From a virus: DNA of 64,000 nt. The notes beneath the pieces are model-generated. The model made no database searches, had not been told where the DNA came from, and saw only the letters and a program-made list of their open reading frames with translations. The position numbers and the translations under genes were made by a program. This document shows, piece by piece, positions 11,633-62,884 of this stretch. The DNA lies in the IMG/VR virus record IMGVR_UViG_3300021964_007165, positions 15,898 to 79,897 of that record; one strand, 5' to 3'. The first letter of the stretch is position 1. Every line of letters starts with the position of its first letter.

Positions 11633-12078
11633 GTATTTTGACCTCTTATTTGTCTAAATTGTTTGTTGTCTGGATACTCACTATAGTATCCTTTTTCTAA
11701 TAATTTATTACTTGCTTGTTTGGTTTCATCTAATCGTTGTAAAACAAAGAATTTAATAGTTGGGTCGTTTAAGTCATTTTCATAATCCATGTATTTGTAT
11801 TCAATAAACAACACATTTCTATCTAAAAAGTATTGGGTTCGACATAGTCCGAATAGTTCTTTACCTTCGTTTGGATCTTGAACATTGTGTAAAATTACAA
11901 GAACAGCATGACTGTCATAACTGTCAAACTCAAACATCACTTTCAGTATATCTAAGTATTGATCTGTATGTACTCTTTTTACGTCTTTACTGTTTGCCCA
12001 AGGGCACTTACCCTTTGCCAATTCGTTTAAATGTAGATCTAACCAAGTATCTATTCTTTGTACATTCATCACCACCAA
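11629..12078 (-). CDS. Hypothetical protein
   Basis: ORF with CPWA motif, packed between neighbours. Confidence 0.55.
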   Translation of the reverse strand: MVVMNVQRIDTWLDLHLNELAKGKCPWANSKDVKRVHTDQYLDILKVMFEFDSYDSHAVLVILHNVQDPNEGKELFGLCRTQYFLDRNVLFIEYKYMDYENDLNDPTIKFFVLQRLDETKQASNKLLEKGYYSEYPDNKQFRQIRGQNT

Positions 12079-12350
12079 CCTATAGCAATTCCATACCCAA
12101 ATATGTTGACCAAACTAAAATAAAATGTCAGTAGCATTACCCAAGCCGCCCCTCGTCTATAAGCGGCATAACACTGTGTAATACTGCCAACAAAAAATCC
12201 TGGATACACAATTAACATATTAGGATCTCTTGCATTTACAGCAAGTGTTAAACTGGCGCCTACTGTAAAGATAAAACTGATTAGTTCAAAACAAAACGCT
12301 GTTTTATCAGAGTGATAACTGTTTATCCAAAAATCTTTTATCTTTTGCAA
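12069..12350 (-). CDS. Small 3-TM membrane protein
   Basis: Three hydrophobic helices, ends VNIFGY. Confidence 0.6.
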   Translation of the reverse strand: MQKIKDFWINSYHSDKTAFCFELISFIFTVGASLTLAVNARDPNMLIVYPGFFVGSITQCYAAYRRGAAWVMLLTFYFSLVNIFGYGIAIGWW

Positions 12351-12611
12351 TTACTTGTCCTTGCCGACAGTAACTACAAGTGTTTCAAGATCATCAAATT
12401 CGTCAGCAACTTTGTGCCAATCTGCTTTGTGTGCAATCTTAATTGCTTTATTGATCAAACTTGACTTTATATCAAGTTCTTGAGAAACTGCTTTCACGGT
12501 TTCTCTAAGTCCTTCTTGGAGATCTTCAATCTCTCTCATTACGTTTGCGCCTTCGTTAACCAATCTTTCGAGTTTGGCTTTTTCGTCTGGGCCGTATGTT
12601 CTACTTGACAT
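12351..12611 (-). CDS. Small helical dsDNA-binding protein (T4 DsbA-like)
   Basis: 86 aa helical; ELDIK..LINKAIKIAHK pattern. Confidence 0.55.
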   Translation of the reverse strand: MSSRTYGPDEKAKLERLVNEGANVMREIEDLQEGLRETVKAVSQELDIKSSLINKAIKIAHKADWHKVADEFDDLETLVVTVGKDK

Positions 12612-12612
12612 C

Positions 12613-13035
12613 TTATTCTCCTTTGTAAGCGTCTAAAGTTTTTTGAAACTTACCTGCGTGTGATTTCTCTGCTTTTGCAAGTGTTTCAAACCAATCAGCA
12701 ATTTCTTCAAAACCTTCTTCTCTGGCTGTTCTTGCCATACCTGGGTACATATCTGTGTACTCATGGATTTCACCTTTGATAGCAGAAGAAAGATTTTGCT
12801 CTGTATTACCCATAGGTTCGCCAGTTGCTGGATCACCTACTTCTTCTAAGTATTCTAAGTGACCGTGTGCATGACCCGTTTCACCTTCTGCTGTGCTTCT
12901 AAATACCTGTGCTACTTCATTAGCACCTTCGATATCTGCTTTTTGAGCAAAGTATAAGTATCTTCTATTTGCTTCTGATTCGCCTTGAAATGCGGCTCTT
13001 AAATTATCTTTTGTTTTGCTGTCTTTTAAGTCCAT
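12613..13035 (-). CDS. Rubrerythrin/erythrin (ferritin-like diiron)
   Basis: [20 protein letters not shown]...MYP, KAEKSH. Confidence 0.93.
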
Positions 13036-13075
13036 AAATTACCTATAAGTTAATATATTTTTGTTAATGTATAGT

Positions 13076-13104
13076 ATTATATATTCGCTTAAGGTAGAAG
13101 TCAA
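13076..13104 (-). promoter_or_regulatory. sigma70-type promoter heading the rubrerythrin-to-polB run
   Basis: TTGACT-N17-TATAAT. Confidence 0.75.
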
Positions 13105-13109
13105 GTGTT

Positions 13110-13706
13110 TTATTGAGACATTGCAAATAAATCAAAATATTTTTTAGTCCACCATTTTTCATTTTCACGACTATCAAATACGATATTTTTGGTAGCAAAA
13201 TGATTTGGCCTTTCGCGATATCTCACTTTAACAGGTCCAGCATCGTGCCAAACATCTGCCTGTCGGTTTAATATAAATCCTCTTGGTGCAGTTGCTCCAA
13301 ATCGTTTTTGAAAAGGTAATTGAGCAAAGTCTAAAATCCACTCTGGTGTGACTACTACTTGATGCGTAGCAACCATGCCTCCTTGTTCGTGGTCATTATG
13401 ACCAACTTTTGCATTCCAACCTTTTGTAGGATGTTTAATATCTACTTCGTACTGTTTTACGTGTGCTTCAATTCCATGAAGCCTTAATATTCTTCGTAGT
13501 GTTTGTGACAGTAAGATACATTGGTTGCCAATTTCATACAGCATATCCATTTGATACATTCTGCAATACACTGTTACAAGTCTATAATCTAAATTGACAA
13601 CATCTTTACCAACGGCTAAACTATAATCCTCTGGAGCAAGATCCCAGTCTGGATCAAACTTCATAAGCGAGTTAAAGAGTACTCGACCTTGTTCGTCAAC
13701 GTTCAT
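13110..13706 (-). CDS. Transglutaminase-like (Cys-His-Asp) protein, lasso peptidase B2-like fold
   Basis: GNQCILLS..L..IL..HGI, THQVVV, ILDFA give a papain-like triad. Confidence 0.55.
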   Translation of the reverse strand: MNVDEQGRVLFNSLMKFDPDWDLAPEDYSLAVGKDVVNLDYRLVTVYCRMYQMDMLYEIGNQCILLSQTLRRILRLHGIEAHVKQYEVDIKHPTKGWNAKVGHNDHEQGGMVATHQVVVTPEWILDFAQLPFQKRFGATAPRGFILNRQADVWHDAGPVKVRYRERPNHFATKNIVFDSRENEKWWTKKYFDLFAMSQ

Positions 13707-52938: not shown

Positions 52939-53487
52939 TTATTCTCCTTTAGTAAGAGTAATTACCCCACAGGCCAGTCTTTCGCCTGCATTTCCGGTTT
53001 TAAGCGATTCTTGATCTCCACCTTTGCCGAGATCATCTTTGTTCTCATGTATGACTATTGCTCTGCCTACAATGCTTCTATCGCCTATCAAATCAATTCT
53101 GTCTGCTTTAATTGTAAACTCAGCGACCCCGTTTGAGTTTGCTTGAACATTGCCCAAATCACCGACATGGCCGTTTTTGAGATCGCCATGCTCCACTCCG
53201 TCAGGGTTGTAATGGCCACCGGCACTTTCACAACCATTGGATAGGTCCCCAAATTCATGGACATGAAATCCATGAAGTCCTTCACTTAAACCAGTTATTC
53301 GACCCTTTATAAGGGTGGCAGTGCCTGGCTTTTGCATGAATAGAATTGTGCCTTTAACAGTGTCTGAATGGACTAAGTCACAAACAGCCGTGACTGCTTC
53401 TTCTGCTTCAACTATTCTTTTCAGGCTTTCACACTGACAAGTTCTTGAGCGTGTTCTGTTGCATTCTGTGAATTGTTTAAATCGCAT
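52939..53487 (-). CDS. sodC: Cu/Zn superoxide dismutase with capsid-targeting-like N-terminus
   Basis: HGFHVH, GCES.GGHYNP, HVGDLGN, GRAIVIH...DDLG, GNAG.R.ACG; start 53487 (TAAATA-N4-ATG). Confidence 0.92.
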
Positions 53488-54512
53488 ACTGTATTTAGCC
53501 AGTAATTGTATAGAGCGATGCTGGCAAGATTCTTCATCTTGCTTTCGCACATGATGTCTGCGTATTCAAGGAATGATAGTGCATACTTATTTACTACAGG
53601 GTTAGGAAAGTAATCGCTATGAGCACGAAGTTTAGCCTTCTTATGCCCTGCTTCTAATAGTGCAGGCATATCAGGCATTGTATCGTGTGCAAATCCTTCG
53701 GGTAGTGCTTCATCTCTGCTGTATGAATAATGTATTACAGGACGCACACCACGCCACGAATCTATTACGCGAGCAAATTGATCACTGGTTGGTGAAACGT
53801 ATGTTCCTTCACGACACCATGAATGGTGTATATCGAGTACAAGGGCACAGGTGTCAACAAGTTCGAGGCTGTGTTCGAGTCCCCATTTGTTCTCGTCGTT
53901 TTCGATCGTGATGCAGTTTCTCGCTTCTTGAGAAAGTCTTGTGTTAACTGCGTGTTTGATACCGGCTGGACCTTGCCTGCCTGATATATGGACGTTGCAT
54001 TTAAAGTCCTGGAATGTACGTCCGTACCCCATCCAGCGGATGACATCGGTGTGATATTCAAATTCCTCTACACTCCTATCTACAATATCAGGATTATCTG
54101 ACGCAAGTACAGTAAACTGACCAGGGTGCATAGACAACCTAACATCAAGTTCACGAGCCTTTGCGCCGACGTTAGCGAAGTTGGTTTCGCAATATTGTCG
54201 TACATCAGGCTTGCGCCAGAAGTAAGACCAAGTAGGCTCAGTATAAACAGGAAGGACGTCACTTCCCAACCTAACCATTCGTAATTCATTCGGTAATTCT
54301 CCTACGTATCTAATCAAGTTTTCGTATGACTTGATGTTGTGTACCATGATATCCCACAAGCGTTCTTCAGCAACATCACGTGTCTGTCGGTTAAGCCACT
54401 GTACTGTTGTGCTACGTGTGTTCAATGGTCGCTGAATTTCCTCAAGAAGTTTTTTCTTCTGAGACTGATCAGGGTGCATATATTTGCAGGCAAAGCCTAT
54501 ACGTTTAATCAT
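53421..54512 (-). CDS. UV damage endonuclease (UvdE/UvsE)
   Basis: [42 protein letters not shown]. Confidence 0.92.
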
Positions 54513-54549: not shown

Positions 54550-55248
54550 TTATTTCCAATTATCTTTACACCACTGATCTACACAATTATGCGGATGTGG
54601 TTCTCCATGGAATACCGCTACATTAGTTTCTGGTTTGATTTTTGGCTCACCTGGTATAGTAAAATTCCTTACACCATTTATTCTTGTCATATCAGGTTTA
54701 CCACGCATCTCCCATTTGTAACTTTGTATCCATTCGTCAGGCCAAAAACAAAAATCTTTACGTACTTGACTATAGATCCAATCTTGGTCTCCATGCATAC
54801 GCTTAGTTGCGATAAACTCTTGTTTAACAAAATTTGTCCATACGTGATCTTGTGTACCTGACTTTAAACGGAACACACTTGAATTCATCTTTTTCCAATC
54901 CGGACGAAGGTGTCGATTAAAGTCTTTACAAATGCAAAATTTATCTGGATTATATGTAAACAAATTATCAATGTTATTAAAAATAATAACATCAAGATCA
55001 AAATATAATATATTTCCGTTGATAGGTAAAGTAGGATCAAAGAACATTGGTTTATACCACCAACCAATGACTGGGAGTTTAGGTAGCGGTAAAACACGTA
55101 TTCCTGCTTGGATGCCTCTTGAATTATCTGTAAAACAAATAAATTCATAAGGAACTGTGGTATTTCGTGCAACCATATTGGCTAACACATTAACATATTC
55201 TGCACTATATTTGTCGCCCCACTTTAGGCATACAACATAGTTTTTCAT
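54550..55248 (-). CDS. GT-A fold glycosyltransferase (GT8-like)
   Basis: KWGDKY, FICFTD, YFDLD (DxD), NSSV, GDQD, FHG.P.P. Confidence 0.8.
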   Translation of the reverse strand: MKNYVVCLKWGDKYSAEYVNVLANMVARNTTVPYEFICFTDNSRGIQAGIRVLPLPKLPVIGWWYKPMFFDPTLPINGNILYFDLDVIIFNNIDNLFTYNPDKFCICKDFNRHLRPDWKKMNSSVFRLKSGTQDHVWTNFVKQEFIATKRMHGDQDWIYSQVRKDFCFWPDEWIQSYKWEMRGKPDMTRINGVRNFTIPGEPKIKPETNVAVFHGEPHPHNCVDQWCKDNWK

Positions 55249-55251
55249 TAA

Positions 55252-55701
55252 CTAACCTTCGTAAATTGCTGAATTAGCGCCATGCTCTGAACATTCGACA
55301 CTTACACAATAACAACGATTATCTGTTGCTTCTCGAATCAGTTTGTCTGCAAAGTTAAATGCATGTTCTGCAAATTTCTCTGCACCAACTCCGTCAAACT
55401 CTCTTACTTCGCACAGGTCTTTGTCTTGTAATTCATAAAAGTCTTGTTTGTGAGGATCATTAATGTCTACACAAGTCTTGTGATCAAAACTATCTTCAAG
55501 CCAAGCCTTCAAAGGTTTAAGTCCACCAAAGTCTACTGCCCAATTTTTGTTGTCCAGTTTGTCGCAACCAAATGTAAATTTAAATGCAAGACTGTAACCA
55601 TGTAGTAAATGACAGTGTGAGTGATCTGCGTTTGGCTGTCTAAAGACTGCCGATAGGCCAATGTTATGACCATATGTTTTTGTGCTATAATGTTTTCCCA
55701 T
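55252..55701 (-). CDS. queD: 6-carboxy-5,6,7,8-tetrahydropterin synthase (QueD)
   Basis: CHLLHGY, VDFG, FDH, AE..A, E...NSA.Y; ATG 55701 with AAGGAG. Confidence 0.85.
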   Translation of the reverse strand: MGKHYSTKTYGHNIGLSAVFRQPNADHSHCHLLHGYSLAFKFTFGCDKLDNKNWAVDFGGLKPLKAWLEDSFDHKTCVDINDPHKQDFYELQDKDLCEVREFDGVGAEKFAEHAFNFADKLIREATDNRCYCVSVECSEHGANSAIYEG

Positions 55702-55763
55702 TATTATCTCCTTTATTAATAATGGCGGCAGAATTATAAGGGTTGACGCCAAGTCCTGTATTA
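55698..55763 (-). promoter_or_regulatory. Structured queD 5' leader, riboswitch candidate
   Basis: AGG/CCU stem, UGGCG/CGCCA pseudoknot, 9-bp CCAUUAUUA/UAAUAAUGG hairpin over SD and AUG. Confidence 0.5.
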
Positions 55764-55769
55764 TTCATT

Positions 55770-55798
55770 AGTATATATGATTTATTCATCCTTGTCAA
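55770..55798 (-). promoter_or_regulatory. sigma70 promoter for queD
   Basis: TTGACA-N17-TATACT. Confidence 0.75.
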
Positions 55799-56423
55799 CC
55801 GGTAAATGTCCATAATGATGCATTTTGGCGGCTACAAGTGGAATTAATTTTTTACGCATAGTATTAAAACTAACTGTGACTCTTTTATCTGATGGATTTG
55901 GATCTGTTCTATGTTCAAGCCAACTTGGAAAAATTAGTAACAATCCAGTTCTTGGTCTGCAACTTGCAAAATAACTACTGTATGGATTTTGGTCTTCAAA
56001 CACATCATTCATACGTAATGGGCGTAACGGAGATTCAAAAATTAATGGACAACTATCTTGGTCAACATATGGATAAAATGCTCCACTTATTACACTACCT
56101 TCATGTCTATGTTTATCTACTTGTCCGTCTTTACCTAACACATTAAACCAACTTGTTCCAAGGATACTTTCTTCAAGTCCTGCGGTCTTACAGTATAAGT
56201 CAATACAATTTTGAATGTCTGCTCTTAACTTTGCAAGTTTTGGATTGAATAAAAATTCTTCATCACCATTAATAAAACTGCTTTTTCCTCCAATGATCAG
56301 GCCATGATCGCCTGTCTCATATTCTTCAATAATCTTATTACAAGTTTCAAGTTCGCTATGACCACTTAAATCAAACGCACTAACAAGGGTAGGGAATAAG
56401 GATAGATTTTCTTGGTTATACAT
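55782..56423 (-). CDS. 2OG-Fe(II) oxygenase-like (TIGR02466-like)
   Basis: LFPT, SWFN, HRH...ISGAFY, LIFPSWLEH, R.TVSFN. Confidence 0.8.
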   Translation of the reverse strand: MYNQENLSLFPTLVSAFDLSGHSELETCNKIIEEYETGDHGLIIGGKSSFINGDEEFLFNPKLAKLRADIQNCIDLYCKTAGLEESILGTSWFNVLGKDGQVDKHRHEGSVISGAFYPYVDQDSCPLIFESPLRPLRMNDVFEDQNPYSSYFASCRPRTGLLLIFPSWLEHRTDPNPSDKRVTVSFNTMRKKLIPLVAAKMHHYGHLPVDKDE

Positions 56424-57030
56424 CTTTATAGTTTAACATCTCTTTAAATTGTGTCAAGTTAAAAAAGGATACATTTTCCTTTTTCCAACTGTCGGGTATT
56501 GTCCAATCTTCTTGATTAAAAATTCTAAATTTTCTGTTGGAGTATCTTTCAAATATTTTTGATATTTGATGAATCCAAAAACTTGGATCAATAGCATGAG
56601 AATCTGCACCTTCATAATTAGGTGTTCCTTTGTAAATATTATTGACAGTTTCCGAATTACTGTATAGATCAAATCCCAACAAGTCAATAACTTCTTCCGG
56701 TTTTGATATTGTACACCCTATATAAACAGCATAAGGTCCGCTCCCCCAATGAAATGGTTGATCTTTTTTTGCTTCTGTGCTATACCAAAGACCAGGAACA
56801 GTATTAATATTATGCTTTCCGCCGAACTCTTCTCTCCAATCAGATCTTGTCCAAATACCTGATTTTTGATTAATGTACTTTGACACCGCTTCTTTGACCA
56901 TGCGTCTATCGCAACAAACGATGTGTCTTACCTTTGCTTCTCGAAATATAGCATTACATCCTATCTTTTCGCAGGATATATTATCTAATTTAATGCCTTT
57001 ACGGCTTTCTCCGTTACCAATTATGAGCAT
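56416..57030 (-). CDS. MptE/Maf/sialyltransferase-like Rossmannoid protein
   Basis: IIGNGESR, GCNA..R, D, SG..A, LLGFD motifs. Confidence 0.5.
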   Translation of the reverse strand: MLIIGNGESRKGIKLDNISCEKIGCNAIFREAKVRHIVCCDRRMVKEAVSKYINQKSGIWTRSDWREEFGGKHNINTVPGLWYSTEAKKDQPFHWGSGPYAVYIGCTISKPEEVIDLLGFDLYSNSETVNNIYKGTPNYEGADSHAIDPSFWIHQISKIFERYSNRKFRIFNQEDWTIPDSWKKENVSFFNLTQFKEMLNYKDV

Positions 57031-57034
57031 ACTA

Positions 57035-57047
57035 TATTTAATAAATA
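57035..57047. promoter_or_regulatory. Back-to-back divergent T4-late-like promoters
   Basis: TATTTA-A-TAAATA between divergent genes (57030 minus, 57075 plus). Confidence 0.65.
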
Positions 57048-57074
57048 CATGTAACGATAGGAAAAATACTGGCT

Positions 57075-60000
57075 ATGCCTACAGCAATACACGACATATT
57101 TAGATATATTAAACTTTATTCACCAGACGGAAGTAGTCTTGAGATGACTCTTGAGGCAGACTCTGTAACAGATACTCTAAGCATACGCAGAGGTGACGGA
57201 GTTAGTTGGAATGTACCAACTGTAAACCCAGGCGGAACTATTGCTGTTACTGTTGGGTTTCACACCGGCACAGGACAAAATACAGGTGCTTTTTATATTG
57301 ATGGAGTAGAGCGTAAAACTATTACACTTGTAAAAGGACAAACTTATATCTTTGATCAAAGCGATGCATCGAATGCAGGCTATGGCGGATATAACCATCC
57401 TATGACATTCAGTAACACTGATGACGGTGCAGTGAGTGGTGCAATTAGTGGTGAAGAATATGCAACAGGTGTAACATATCTAATCGATGATATAGCAGTA
57501 AGTAAAACAATTTATAGACAAGATTTTACTACTACAACTAATAGAAAAATCAAGATTGAACTAAACGATTCTGCTCCAGGAACATTGTATTATTGTTCAC
57601 ATGATAACATTGACCAAGGTGGACAAATACTAACATCAGCAGGCAATGACCTAATGATGATTGATGTTGACTATTCTTTAGATGTTCCGCCTGGTACGAC
57701 AAGAGTGGAATTAACAGATGTAAACTCAGCAACTTCTCATGTAGAATTATCAGCGACTGGCGGTATTACACTTACAAGAAAAAATGCAAATGAAATTGAA
57801 ATAGGATCATTTGCTGTAGCAGAAGTTGATACATTACATACAGTCACTAAAAGAAATGCTATTACAACAAACAAATTATACATAGAAGATATTGAAGTTG
57901 GAGACGTAAGAAGCGTCACAGGAGTAGACGGCTTTGTTTCTCCAAGTGTTGAATTTTTAGGTAATGGTACTATAGATGATGCTTTGAGGTTAACAGTAGC
58001 AGAGCGTGAAGTAACTACAAATACAGTTACAAAAACATTTAATTTTAATAGTCAAGCAATGCCCGGTGTGTTAAATTATACAATAGGTTATCAATTAGAC
58101 AGTGGTGCAAATGCAACTTCGGTAACAGCAAGTATCCAAAGATATAATACAGCAACAACTATTTGGGAAACACTTGATACAATATCTGGTGTTACAGGAA
58201 TTCCATATGAAGTCTCTAATATGTACAACGAAACAGATGTTGCAGGTGGACAGTATAGAGTTGTTTATAATATAAGTGGCAACACAGGAACTATTACGCT
58301 TGAATTACGAGCATACTATGAAATACTGGAGATTACACATAACCCCGTGCTTAGAACAGAAAGTGCAGTAGGTACTTTAAGAACACGCGACCTCGCTCCA
58401 TTAGGAACCAATGACATTGGTAGAGGTAGTGAACCATATGACAATGTGTATGCTAATATATTTCACGGACACCTACAAGGAACATTTGATGGTGACTTAA
58501 CTGGTTCATTGTATTCAGACGATAGTACATTACTTGTTGATGCTATTAACGGAATTATATATGGTACTGTTGATGCTAACATTAACAGAGGTACTAATGC
58601 ATTTACATTAGATGCAAACAGCGTAAAAATAGAAGTACCACAAGGATCAAACGAGATCCGTTTACTCTCCTACGGCAACACCGATAGTTCACTGATTTCC
58701 ATAATTGCTGATGACGCTACTACTATAAATTCAGGTAACGGTAATCTTGATTTATATTCTGCTAATCCTAACGATATAACTGTAAATTCAGGACGTGACG
58801 CATACTATTACAGTGATTTTGGTAATACACTTATTAATGCTGGCGGAGACATAACACTCTCAGCAGTAGACGGTATTAACATCAACAGTCCTGTAAACAC
58901 AGTTATATTTGGAACTGCTGGATTTGTTGGAGACTTAACAGGTTCAGTATATGGACCAGACTCAACTACTATAATTGACAACAATGGTGTTGTTACAGGT
59001 GAAGTAAACAACGCAAACATTGGAACAGGCAATCTTGATGCAGGAACCATTACAGATGGTGTGATGACAATTACAAATGGTGTAGGAACAGCATTTACAG
59101 AAATTGAATCTACTCTGTTTGACGGTGTGCTTGAAGGCGATGTGTACGGCAATGACGGAACAAGCCAACTTGTAGACGCAACTGCAAATCAAATTGTAGG
59201 TGAAGTAAATGCAAACATAAACAGAACAGGTGCATTAACGATTGTATCAGATACAAGCATTGCATTTAACAGTGGTGTGGGTGTTGACGTAAACGGTAAA
59301 CTTGTAAACAGTGCTAATGCGGCACAGCCATTTACTATTGGCAGTCCAGTAACACTTGAAAAAGAATTTAGAGCATTTCCAGGTGCTCAAGAAGTTACAT
59401 CATATACAAATGTATCATCTGCTACATATGTAATTGATACCAGTGCAACCCAAAATGTTTACTGGAACGCACCAAGTGGTCCTTGTGTTGCTAACTTTAC
59501 CAACCTTGAAACAAGTACACAAAGATTAAGAAAATGTAGAATCATTATCAACACAGGTGCAACTGCTGTTATTCCAACTATTGAAATTAATGGTGTTTCT
59601 CAGGCATTTTCAAACATAGGCCCAGTTGCGGCACAGATTAATACACTTAATATATTTGAATTTTGGTTCTATAGAACACACACAAATACATGGGAAGTTT
59701 ACTGTAGAAATGTAGATGCAAATGCTTATGATCTACAAGCAATTACAGATTACGGTGCAACAACTACTAACTCGATTACCACAGCAGGATTAGATGCTGG
59801 CAGTGGCACAATTGAAACCACAGGTGCTGTCCAAGGTGGCAGTGGTTCATTTAATGGTGTTCCAACTCCAACCAGAGGCGGCGAACTTACATTAGGCGTT
59901 ACTCCAAGTTGGTCAGGCAGTATTGGTATTACTCCTACAAGACAAAGTGCGGGTAATTATAGATTAACATTCTCAAGTGCTTATGCTGGCTCAACAGACT

Positions 60001-61594: not shown

Positions 61595-62884
61595 TTATCT
61601 AACTGCCTTTAGTAATATAGTATCACTATTAATTCTGCCGTTTAATTTGATGTCTACTGCATTGATATCTTCAAGATAAGTGTTGAGTTTACGCTTGCCT
61701 GCTTCACTAAATTCTTTAAGTTTTTCTTCAGGCTTACGTAAGGTTTTTTGTACGCTGGATTCTTCATTGAATCCAATAACAGTAGTGCCTTTCACACTAA
61801 GTCCCGAACCTTCTCTTTCTGCGCCGAGTGGATCAATTACTTTAGCAACATATTTTCCTATCTTACGGGTCTTTACATTGAATACCCAAAGTTCATTACA
61901 TCCGATAATTTCAATCGGATTAATGCTGGCTAATTGGAATTTATCATCGTTTACTGCATATTTTAATTTAGCAATCAACTTCTCTTTTGATCGAGGTTGT
62001 TTCTTCCTTGGCTTTCTTAAGGCTTTTGCGGTATTAATTACCACATCTAATGCACCCATGTATAATTCTAATGCTTGTAATTTCTTTTTAAGATCAACCT
62101 TACTGAAAATAGCATATCCCTCTTTCAATTGAGAAAACCAATCTTTTTCTTGATCAGTTGCGTCTGCTTTTAACTTTGGTGGATTTAAAACTTCCTTTAG
62201 TTCCACTATTTCTGACTCATAATACTCTTTGATCTTCCGAGCGTGTGCCTGTGTAATTTTAACCTCGTAGAAATGTTTCTTAAAATCAAAGCCTTTATTA
62301 TCAAACTTTGCAGGATCATCAATCCAACTGTCTAACCATTCTTGAGGCTTTTCATCCATTAACCATGCTTGGTTAGTAATGCGTTCTTGAATAGTTGGCA
62401 CATAGATATTTGCTTTCTTTGATTCTTCTTTTTTCTTTTCTTCTTCTTCTGCTTGTGCAAATGCGTCGGCTTTGTATTTTAAATCATCTAAAAACTTATC
62501 AATACTTTCGTTTGCTGGCTTAACACTGCCCATAGTACCAGGTAGGCTTTCCCAGTATTTACTGTATGCTTCGTTGACATTGGGTTTGCCTAATAAAGAC
62601 ATACGACACATACCGCCTACTGTGCAATGAAATCTACTATCTGGTATCTTAGAAAACTTATTTGCTTCTTTAATCCACTTTTCAGTGCTACGCATATATT
62701 CAATAGTCCAACTCTTAAAGTCAGTAGGCTTACAATCTAACCTGTAATAATCAAGTGCTGTGCTGATTCTGCGTCCATACTCCTCTGGTGAAATCTTTTC
62801 CCAGTCGGCCCATTGAGGTTCTTGTTTAGATACCTTTGGTGCTCTTACTACTTTGCGTTTTTTACGAGGGGCTGTCAAAGCCAT
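61595..62884 (-). CDS. Hypothetical protein (early)
   Basis: 429 aa; P.IQER, LWVFN.K.RK, G.SVKGTT, KTLRKP, LNGRIN; sigma70 promoter upstream. Confidence 0.7.
   Translation of the reverse strand: MALTAPRKKRKVVRAPKVSKQEPQWADWEKISPEEYGRRISTALDYYRLDCKPTDFKSWTIEYMRSTEKWIKEANKFSKIPDSRFHCTVGGMCRMSLLGKPNVNEAYSKYWESLPGTMGSVKPANESIDKFLDDLKYKADAFAQAEEEEKKKEESKKANIYVPTIQERITNQAWLMDEKPQEWLDSWIDDPAKFDNKGFDFKKHFYEVKITQAHARKIKEYYESEIVELKEVLNPPKLKADATDQEKDWFSQLKEGYAIFSKVDLKKKLQALELYMGALDVVINTAKALRKPRKKQPRSKEKLIAKLKYAVNDDKFQLASINPIEIIGCNELWVFNVKTRKIGKYVAKVIDPLGAEREGSGLSVKGTTVIGFNEESSVQKTLRKPEEKLKEFSEAGKRKLNTYLEDINAVDIKLNGRINSDTILLKAVR

Follow-up and report, generated by a model that had tools for sequence, protein, structure and literature searches.

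The leader of phage T4 gene 32 contains a pseudoknot that serves as a protein-binding translational operator in a T4-type phage and is not linked to a metabolic pathway. Other small leader pseudoknots, among them preQ1-I, SAM-II and SAM-V, respond to metabolites. In preQ1-I, as described in PMC10622847, a specificity cytidine at the end of L2 is conserved, as are a ligand-contacting uridine in L1 and a ligand-contacting adenine in L3, and L3 is A-rich. According to PMC10622847 and PMC11625349, the known preQ1 riboswitches are all OFF switches. In SAM-II and SAM-V, about 7 nt serve as the third strand of a major-groove triple helix, and P2 is highly conserved (PMC6061858).

Here we analyse the leader of a queD gene from an uncultured phage, for which the original prediction, made from the sequence of this DNA, proposed a variant riboswitch in which a preQ1-I-like pseudoknot competes with a hairpin that buries the start codon, possibly as an ON switch. 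We find that the pseudoknot recurs upstream of queD in 65 distinct IMG/VR phage sequences. A full-text literature search found no description of this queD-leader motif.

Genomic context and promoter

The window analysed, 64,000 nt in length, is part of the genome of an uncultured myophage, represented by an IMG/VR record of 79.9 kb that is 23% complete according to CheckV. Coding density is high on the minus strand, where there are tail-fibre genes and a gene for a T4-type DNA polymerase, which shows 43–50% identity to the polymerases of Phosso, Atu_ph07 and large E. coli phages, all with genomes of 350–490 kb. By this sequence relationship, the phage is a distant T4-like jumbo myophage. The queD gene (55252–55701, minus strand) encodes a QueD-like 6-carboxytetrahydropterin synthase of the PTPS family with 149 amino acids (PF01242, 3.8e-13; phrog_2389, 2.4e-39). 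The protein is 47% identical to QueD of Pseudomonas phage Iggy, with a C-x3-HGY motif common to both, and Iggy queD belongs to a queE-queC-queD-folE-dpdA cluster. Judged by both DNA polymerase and QueD, the closest cultured relative is Sinorhizobium phage Phosso, whose queD has no such element upstream. Downstream of the window queD lie a glycosyltransferase-like gene, a Cu/Zn superoxide dismutase gene and a UvdE UV-damage endonuclease gene; the listed reading frames of the latter two (52939–54512, minus strand) overlap by about 130 nt, so the real start of the superoxide dismutase gene is probably further downstream.

Upstream, a 2OG-Fe(II) oxygenase gene (55782–56423, minus strand) is separated from queD by a spacer of 80 nt on the minus strand. 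The promoter TTGACA-N17-TATACT is located on the minus strand where it had been predicted, with the −35 hexamer TTGACA at 55793–55798 and, after a 17-nt spacer, the −10 hexamer TATACT at 55770–55775. Matching the consensus at 11 of 12 positions, it is the top promoter match across 55000–57200. The −35 hexamer overlaps the 3′ end of the oxygenase gene, the stop codon of which falls between the two hexamers. Hexamer spacing, the sole basis of the estimate, would put the transcription start near 55763. Among 69 homologous leaders, 59 have a sigma-70-like promoter 6–18 nt upstream of P1, counted when the −35 has at most 2 mismatches, the −10 at most 1 mismatch and the end of the −10 lies 6–18 nt before P1. 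Only this promoter consensus places the pseudoknot in a putative 5′ leader. Contigs from RNA-library runs are short and mostly belong to relatives; one relative's contig covers the leader and the 5′ end of queD, and the contigs show neither start site nor strand.

Pseudoknot architecture in the window

The leader sequence quoted in the original prediction, and every motif listed with it, are present at the predicted positions on the minus strand, to which all coordinates of the element refer. In P1, AGG (55757–55755) pairs with CCU (55741–55739), and the helix can optionally be extended past a bulged C55758 by AUA (55761–55759) and UAU (55738–55736), with A55759, U55760 and A55761 pairing with U55738, A55737 and U55736; the extended strands span 55755–55761 and 55736–55741. 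L1 (ACUU, 55751–55754) has a C in 64 of 65 sequences and a first base that varies among A, U and C. In P2, the 5′ strand GGCG (55747–55750) pairs with the 3′ strand CGCC(A) (55723–55727), that is, G55750–G55747 with C55727–C55724, and U55751 can give a fifth pair with A55723; the 3′ strand is common to the start-codon hairpin described below. L2 (UCAAC, 55742–55746) has an invariant U, C and last C in 65 of 65 sequences, and this last base, C55742, is unpaired and lies immediately 5′ of the P1 3′ strand. L3 (UAUAAUUCUGC, 55728–55738) is not A-rich; the A, U, C, G and C of its block AAUUCUGC are invariant. The whole aptamer measures about 35 nt, or about 40 nt with flanking bases, with 3–5 bp in P1 and 4–5 bp in P2. 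Its G+C content is 47%, compared with about 36% in the window, in keeping with the earlier description of the leader as GC-rich for this genome.

As an isolated hairpin, the window P1 is marginal (3 bp, −0.2 kcal/mol), and the nested fold of the window leader taken alone is ordinary relative to shuffles (z = −0.41). Since the nested fold is no better than that of shuffled sequence, the case for the element depends on how it compares with its relatives. Folding of the leader to minimum energy (−10.2 kcal/mol) gives a P2-like helix (55727–55751, minus strand) in a register displaced by 3 nt, UGGCG/UGCCG, which is compatible with the complete start-codon hairpin. In the folding model, this shifted register is a possible apo-state register; it has no covariation support. 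Other pairings within the knot were rejected. A GAC/GUC mini-hairpin fails because A-to-U changes in GGAC are uncompensated, and a role of the P1 3′ strand as an anti-Shine–Dalgarno sequence finds no support, since the GUGG/CCAC and UCGG/CCGA variants still have a GGAGG Shine–Dalgarno.

Conservation and covariation among relatives

A search of IMG/VR with the window QueD protein and two relatives yielded about 200 loci with QueD proteins 83–100% identical, most of which have the same element directly upstream of queD. In a MAFFT alignment of 41 distinct copies, 88% of cells were paired and double-sided changes were found at 7 of 9 pairs; the observed covariation was equalled by 0 of 500 shuffles. 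A covariance model that had been given P1 only aligned 70 copies, 65 of them distinct. On this alignment, 88.9% of P2 cells were paired, with double-sided changes at all 5 of 5 P2 pairs and at 3 of 5 P1 pairs. The covariation score was 0.363; shuffles gave 0.115 and slid registers no more than 0.19. When the register was slid by −3, double-sided changes remained at 1 pair only, compared with 8 in the pseudoknot register.

The variants show how the two helices change. GGCG/CGCC of P2 appears in relatives as AGCG/CGCU, GACG/CGUC, AACG/CGUU, AUGC/GCAU and UGACAU/GUGUCA, and P1 appears as AGG/CCU, GAGG/CCUC, GUGG/CCAC, GCGG/CCGC and UCGG/CCGA. Two G–C pairs of P1 are invariant, and the third pair (A–U, U–A or C–G) and the fourth pair (G–C, A–U or U–A) co-vary. 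Across the 65 distinct sequences, conservation is highest at unpaired bases, namely the C of L1, the U-C-R-N-C of L2 and the A..UC.GC of L3. By analogy, such invariant unpaired bases look as they do in ligand pockets.

Compensatory changes in both helices across 65 distinct relatives bear out the H-type pseudoknot of AGG/CCU and UGGCG/CGCCA that had been proposed, which is conserved and co-varies upstream of homologous queD genes. They also refute the view that the helices are chance complementary words in an intergenic spacer, to which we give practically no credence even though the shuffle comparison of the nested leader fold (z = −0.41) would be in its favour. Together, these sequence comparisons indicate that the H-type pseudoknot in the phage queD leader is a real, conserved cis-regulatory element.

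Distribution of the element

Scanning viral contigs for the pattern gave 79 evaluable matches, every one of them upstream of queD, and each phage record has one copy, including records of 268 and 237 kb. At one locus (L318:5113–5182), the same aptamer precedes a gene of the canonical QueD subfamily, which encodes 179 amino acids, has a C-x3-HGH motif and is only 33% identical to the window QueD; the RNA therefore tracks gene function, not one gene lineage. The presence of one aptamer before two QueD subfamilies so far apart also argues against autoregulation by the QueD protein. In 36 related queD loci (L018–L021, L027, L028, L034, L037 and others), the aptamer is missing and a short leader immediately follows TTGACA-N17-TATAAT; the element is therefore an optional, dispensable regulatory module.

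BLAST searches against 50,697 GenBank phage records returned no match for the queD locus or for the 47-nt window aptamer. A scan of 185,579 species genomes gave no true instance of the type-B pattern, which needs at least 6 nt between CCCT and AYTCYGCCG and thus covers the type-B form only, not the type-A form of the window. The two matches that it gave, close to chance expectation, were rejected: each falls within a coding sequence and has no complementary P2. From these sequence searches, the element appears confined to uncultured giant aquatic phages. Within the window, a second model match (61616–61645, plus strand) scored 21 bits with R1, the P1 model, and 8 bits with R2, and was attributed to chance; it reflects a 15-nt similarity to the L3 and P2 3′ sequence, runs antisense inside an open reading frame and has neither P1 nor P2.

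Overlap of P2 with a start-codon hairpin

The hairpin predicted to bury the start codon is a perfect 9-bp helix of −7.2 kcal/mol (55725–55717 with 55706–55698). It joins the 5′ arm CCAUUAUUA (55717–55725, minus strand) to the 3′ arm UAAUAAUGG (55698–55706, minus strand), loops out AUAAAGGAGA and pairs the AUG at 55701–55699, with the Shine–Dalgarno AGGAG (55708–55712, minus strand) in its 10-nt loop. C55725, C55724 and A55723 are common to P2 and the hairpin. The hairpin falls from −7.2 kcal/mol to −0.7 kcal/mol when P2 takes CC, and to +0.6 kcal/mol when P2 takes CCA. Because both folds need the same three bases and the hairpin is weak without them, the two would be mutually exclusive, in agreement with the proposal that they share CCA and compete.

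The competing folds bear on the direction of a switch. An OFF riboswitch would operate by coaxial stacking of a ligand-stabilised P2 on the adjoining AU-rich hairpin, burying the start codon and giving feedback by preQ0, preQ1 or CDG. P2 and the hairpin are directly adjacent, the minimum-energy fold at −10.2 kcal/mol has the 3-nt-shifted P2-like helix beside the complete hairpin, and the known preQ1 riboswitches all act in this direction (PMC10622847, PMC11625349). The register supported by covariation nevertheless uses the CC(A) of the hairpin, the −3 slid register has 1 double-sided pair against 8, and the hairpin without its two C–G pairs retains only −0.7 kcal/mol; we regard an OFF switch as improbable.

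Complementarity between the tail of the knot and the start of the gene extends to relatives. In most lineages, the P2 3′ strand and the next bases are complementary to the start codon and the second codon, with combinations specific to the lineage: CCCAU with AUGGG, GCCAU with AUGGC, and UGUCAUUG with CAAUGGCA. The native tail-to-start duplexes have a mean of −7.33 kcal/mol, compared with −5.14 ± 0.20 kcal/mol for permuted partners (equalled in 0 of 2,000 permutations). In 52 of 69 leaders, a duplex of −4 kcal/mol or stronger takes in two or more nucleotides each of the P2 3′ strand and the start codon. In the type-B subgroup, CUCC of L3 pairs with the Shine–Dalgarno GGAG instead (9 of 12 leaders).

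In a nested-fold apo/holo model in which the aptamer bases were blocked, the cost of opening the ribosome-binding site was lower by a median of 3.1 kcal/mol, with a gain of only 0.7 kcal/mol in the window itself. Shuffled copies of the aptamer closed the ribosome-binding site equally well in the nested-fold model (mean z = −0.28), so the 3.1 kcal/mol difference is not specific and is not counted as support. The ON-type wiring suggested in the original prediction draws on the overlap between P2 and the hairpin and on the co-varying tail-to-start helix, and finds no backing in the shuffled-aptamer control, which was negative.

folE leader and pathway genes

In the phage record and two larger relatives, FolE adjoins a divergent QueE-like radical-SAM protein. 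On contig L089 (the G000 contig), the QueE-like radical-SAM gene (11646–12542, minus strand) is adjacent to folE (12720–13412, minus strand). The called ATG of folE, at 13412, is 1 nt after GGAG; comparison with relatives makes a UUG the more likely start, which lies 5 nt farther downstream and some 7 nt past GGAG. Searches of five records, 23–75% complete, yielded no QueC (with PF06508 and the Iggy protein as queries), no TGT (PF01702) and no counterpart of Iggy DpdA, and a QueF-type partner likewise did not turn up in the incomplete phage records.

The folE leader carries a conserved element of its own (L089 13401–13443, minus strand), about 2.5 kb outside the window, which 71 of 80 related folE loci possess. 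The element consists of a hairpin of 4–5 bp, four pairs of which co-vary, with AUCCNC as its invariant loop, and of the tail UAAC(A)UCGGAG; it has no match in Rfam. The loop UCC could pair with GGA of the Shine–Dalgarno to form an OFF-type mini-pseudoknot, a possibility suggested by the sequence, in which these bases never vary. In the folE and the queD element alike, AC precedes the P1 3′ strand and UAAYUC follows it.

Proposed mechanism and candidate ligands

The structure, conserved loops and position of the queD-leader element make it a probable riboswitch. More specifically, we propose an ON riboswitch that senses a small-molecule member of the GTP-to-7-deazaguanine or pterin pathway, a prediction to which we give about an even chance of being correct. 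In the ligand-free state, the P2 3′ strand and the bases following it would pair with the start and second codons and close the ribosome-binding site; in one subgroup, CUCC of L3 would close it by pairing with the Shine–Dalgarno. Once the knot forms, P2 would take those bases, the closing helix would lose its only G–C pairs and QueD translation would be switched ON. If a ligand stabilises the knot, its binding frees the start site, and the element is then an ON switch. We infer the existence and the identity of such a ligand as well as its stabilisation of the knot, the last by analogy with the pseudoknot riboswitches compared below. The ON direction is the better-supported wiring compared with OFF. 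Points against the ON riboswitch reading are the unusual use of an ON switch for a biosynthetic gene, the negative shuffled-aptamer control and, in the window, a very weak P1 (3 bp, −0.2 kcal/mol) with a modelled gain of only 0.7 kcal/mol.

A structured leader need not sense a small molecule. The pseudoknot could be an operator for a phage or host protein, or a constitutive element of mRNA stability or translation timing. Covariation is proof of structure and not of a bound ligand; no thermodynamic sign of a specific switch emerges from the shuffled-aptamer control; and the phage is a distant T4-like jumbo myophage, which recalls the operator of T4 gene 32. On the other side, the loop bases are invariant while the helices vary, the element is tied to a single pathway gene, queD, and the start-codon helix co-varies and overlaps P2. 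With these points weighed, we consider a leader of this kind unlikely, though a serious contender.

For the ON riboswitch that we prefer, a small compound from the GTP-to-7-deazaguanine or pterin pathway would be the most likely ligand. If the folE and queD RNAs read the same molecule, our most economical guess would be the FolE product and QueD substrate, with a 7-deazaguanine as the alternative. On a more speculative level, the two elements may represent a phage-only riboswitch class with two wirings per genome, in which a minimal folE knot, made of the hairpin and the Shine–Dalgarno and acting as an OFF switch, and a larger queD knot acting as an ON switch respond to the same pathway intermediate (dihydroneopterin triphosphate or a 7-deazaguanine) and balance the first two deazapurine/pterin steps during infection; we hold this idea only tentatively.

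If a ligand binds, the element would be a new riboswitch class, seemingly confined to uncultured giant aquatic phages. It would switch translation ON, whereas the preQ1 and SAM-II/SAM-V pseudoknot switches used for comparison repress, and it would mean that phages regulate their own nucleobase-modification or pterin pathway through metabolite sensing. The identity of the ligand would show which product these phages obtain from FolE, QueD and a QueE-like enzyme, with no QueC or transglycosylase evident. An aptamer of about 35 nt would also offer a compact ON-switch scaffold.

Comparison with known RNA families

Rfam 15 gave no relevant match at E ≤ 10 in the window, in searches of either 701 nt or 81 nt. 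A 15-bit match to Mu-gpT-DE in the window was rejected, as it reflects the Shine–Dalgarno and AUG region only. Of 12 variant loci, 11 had no Rfam match and the twelfth gave only a sub-threshold match to SAM-II.

The closest likeness is to preQ1-I (RF00522, types I–III), which is also a small H-type pseudoknot in which P1 is short and the 3′ tail pairs to form P2. In each of the two, L2 ends at its 3′ side in a conserved C, here C55742 (alignment column 27; C in 65 of 65 sequences), an equivalence by position only. Both lie upstream of a gene of the GTP-to-7-deazaguanine pathway, with control at translation, which for queD is a prediction. The description of the element as preQ1-I-like but not canonical holds in its H-type topology, in the C before the P1 3′ strand and in an L3 that is not A-rich; membership of the family finds no support, as RF00522 does not match. 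At the L1 position adjoining P1, 52 sequences have A, 11 have U and 2 have C, where preQ1-I has a conserved U. L3 is pyrimidine-rich and ends in an invariant UCYGC, where preQ1-I has an A-tract with a ligand-contacting A. P2 is a regular, G+C-rich, co-varying helix. The Shine–Dalgarno of preQ1-I lies in or next to the P2 3′ strand, whereas that of queD (55712–55708) is 12 nt downstream of P2. In the folding model, P2 overlaps the arm that pairs with the start codon and the wiring reads ON, whereas preQ1-I is OFF. The element has been found only in uncultured phage contigs, and the RF00522 model does not score it.

These comparisons also weigh on a reading of the element as a divergent preQ1-I family member that senses preQ1, which its topology, the conserved C ending L2 before the P1 3′ strand and its location upstream of a queuosine-pathway gene would suit. 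We judge such membership very improbable: RF00522 gave no match at E ≤ 10 in the window, even in the 81-nt search, or in the 12 variant loci, the L1 base next to P1 is variable (A, U or C), L3 ends in an invariant G-C and is not A-rich, the Shine–Dalgarno lies outside P2, and the incomplete phage records yielded neither QueC nor a QueF-type partner nor a TGT/DpdA gene.

SAM-II and SAM-V (RF00521, RF01826) are likewise H-type pseudoknots and are common in marine alphaproteobacteria. They differ from the queD motif, which has no U-rich L1 third strand and no conserved A–U triplex in P2, the features by which the SAM pocket is defined (PMC6061858); its L1 has 3–4 nt in most sequences, its P2 is G+C-rich and varies freely, and the element has no link to methionine or SAM genes. 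A divergent lineage of the queD element (L040:2426–2490 and L090:318–393) is set apart by an L1 of 10 nt and by extra sequence inserted into L3. This lineage scores 26.3 bits with SAM-II (RF00521), below the gathering score of 36, and the similarity lies in the P1 3′ strand and L3.

THF-II (the folE motif) and THF-I provide a precedent for the sensing of pterin-type ligands and control folate and pterin genes, including folE. Their architecture appears to differ from that of the queD-leader element, and neither gave an Rfam match to the queD leader or the folE leader. The T4 gene 32 leader is similar in being a 5′ leader pseudoknot that controls translation in a T4-type phage. With riboswitches in general, the queD element shares a covarying structure and conserved unpaired bases in a predicted 5′ leader.
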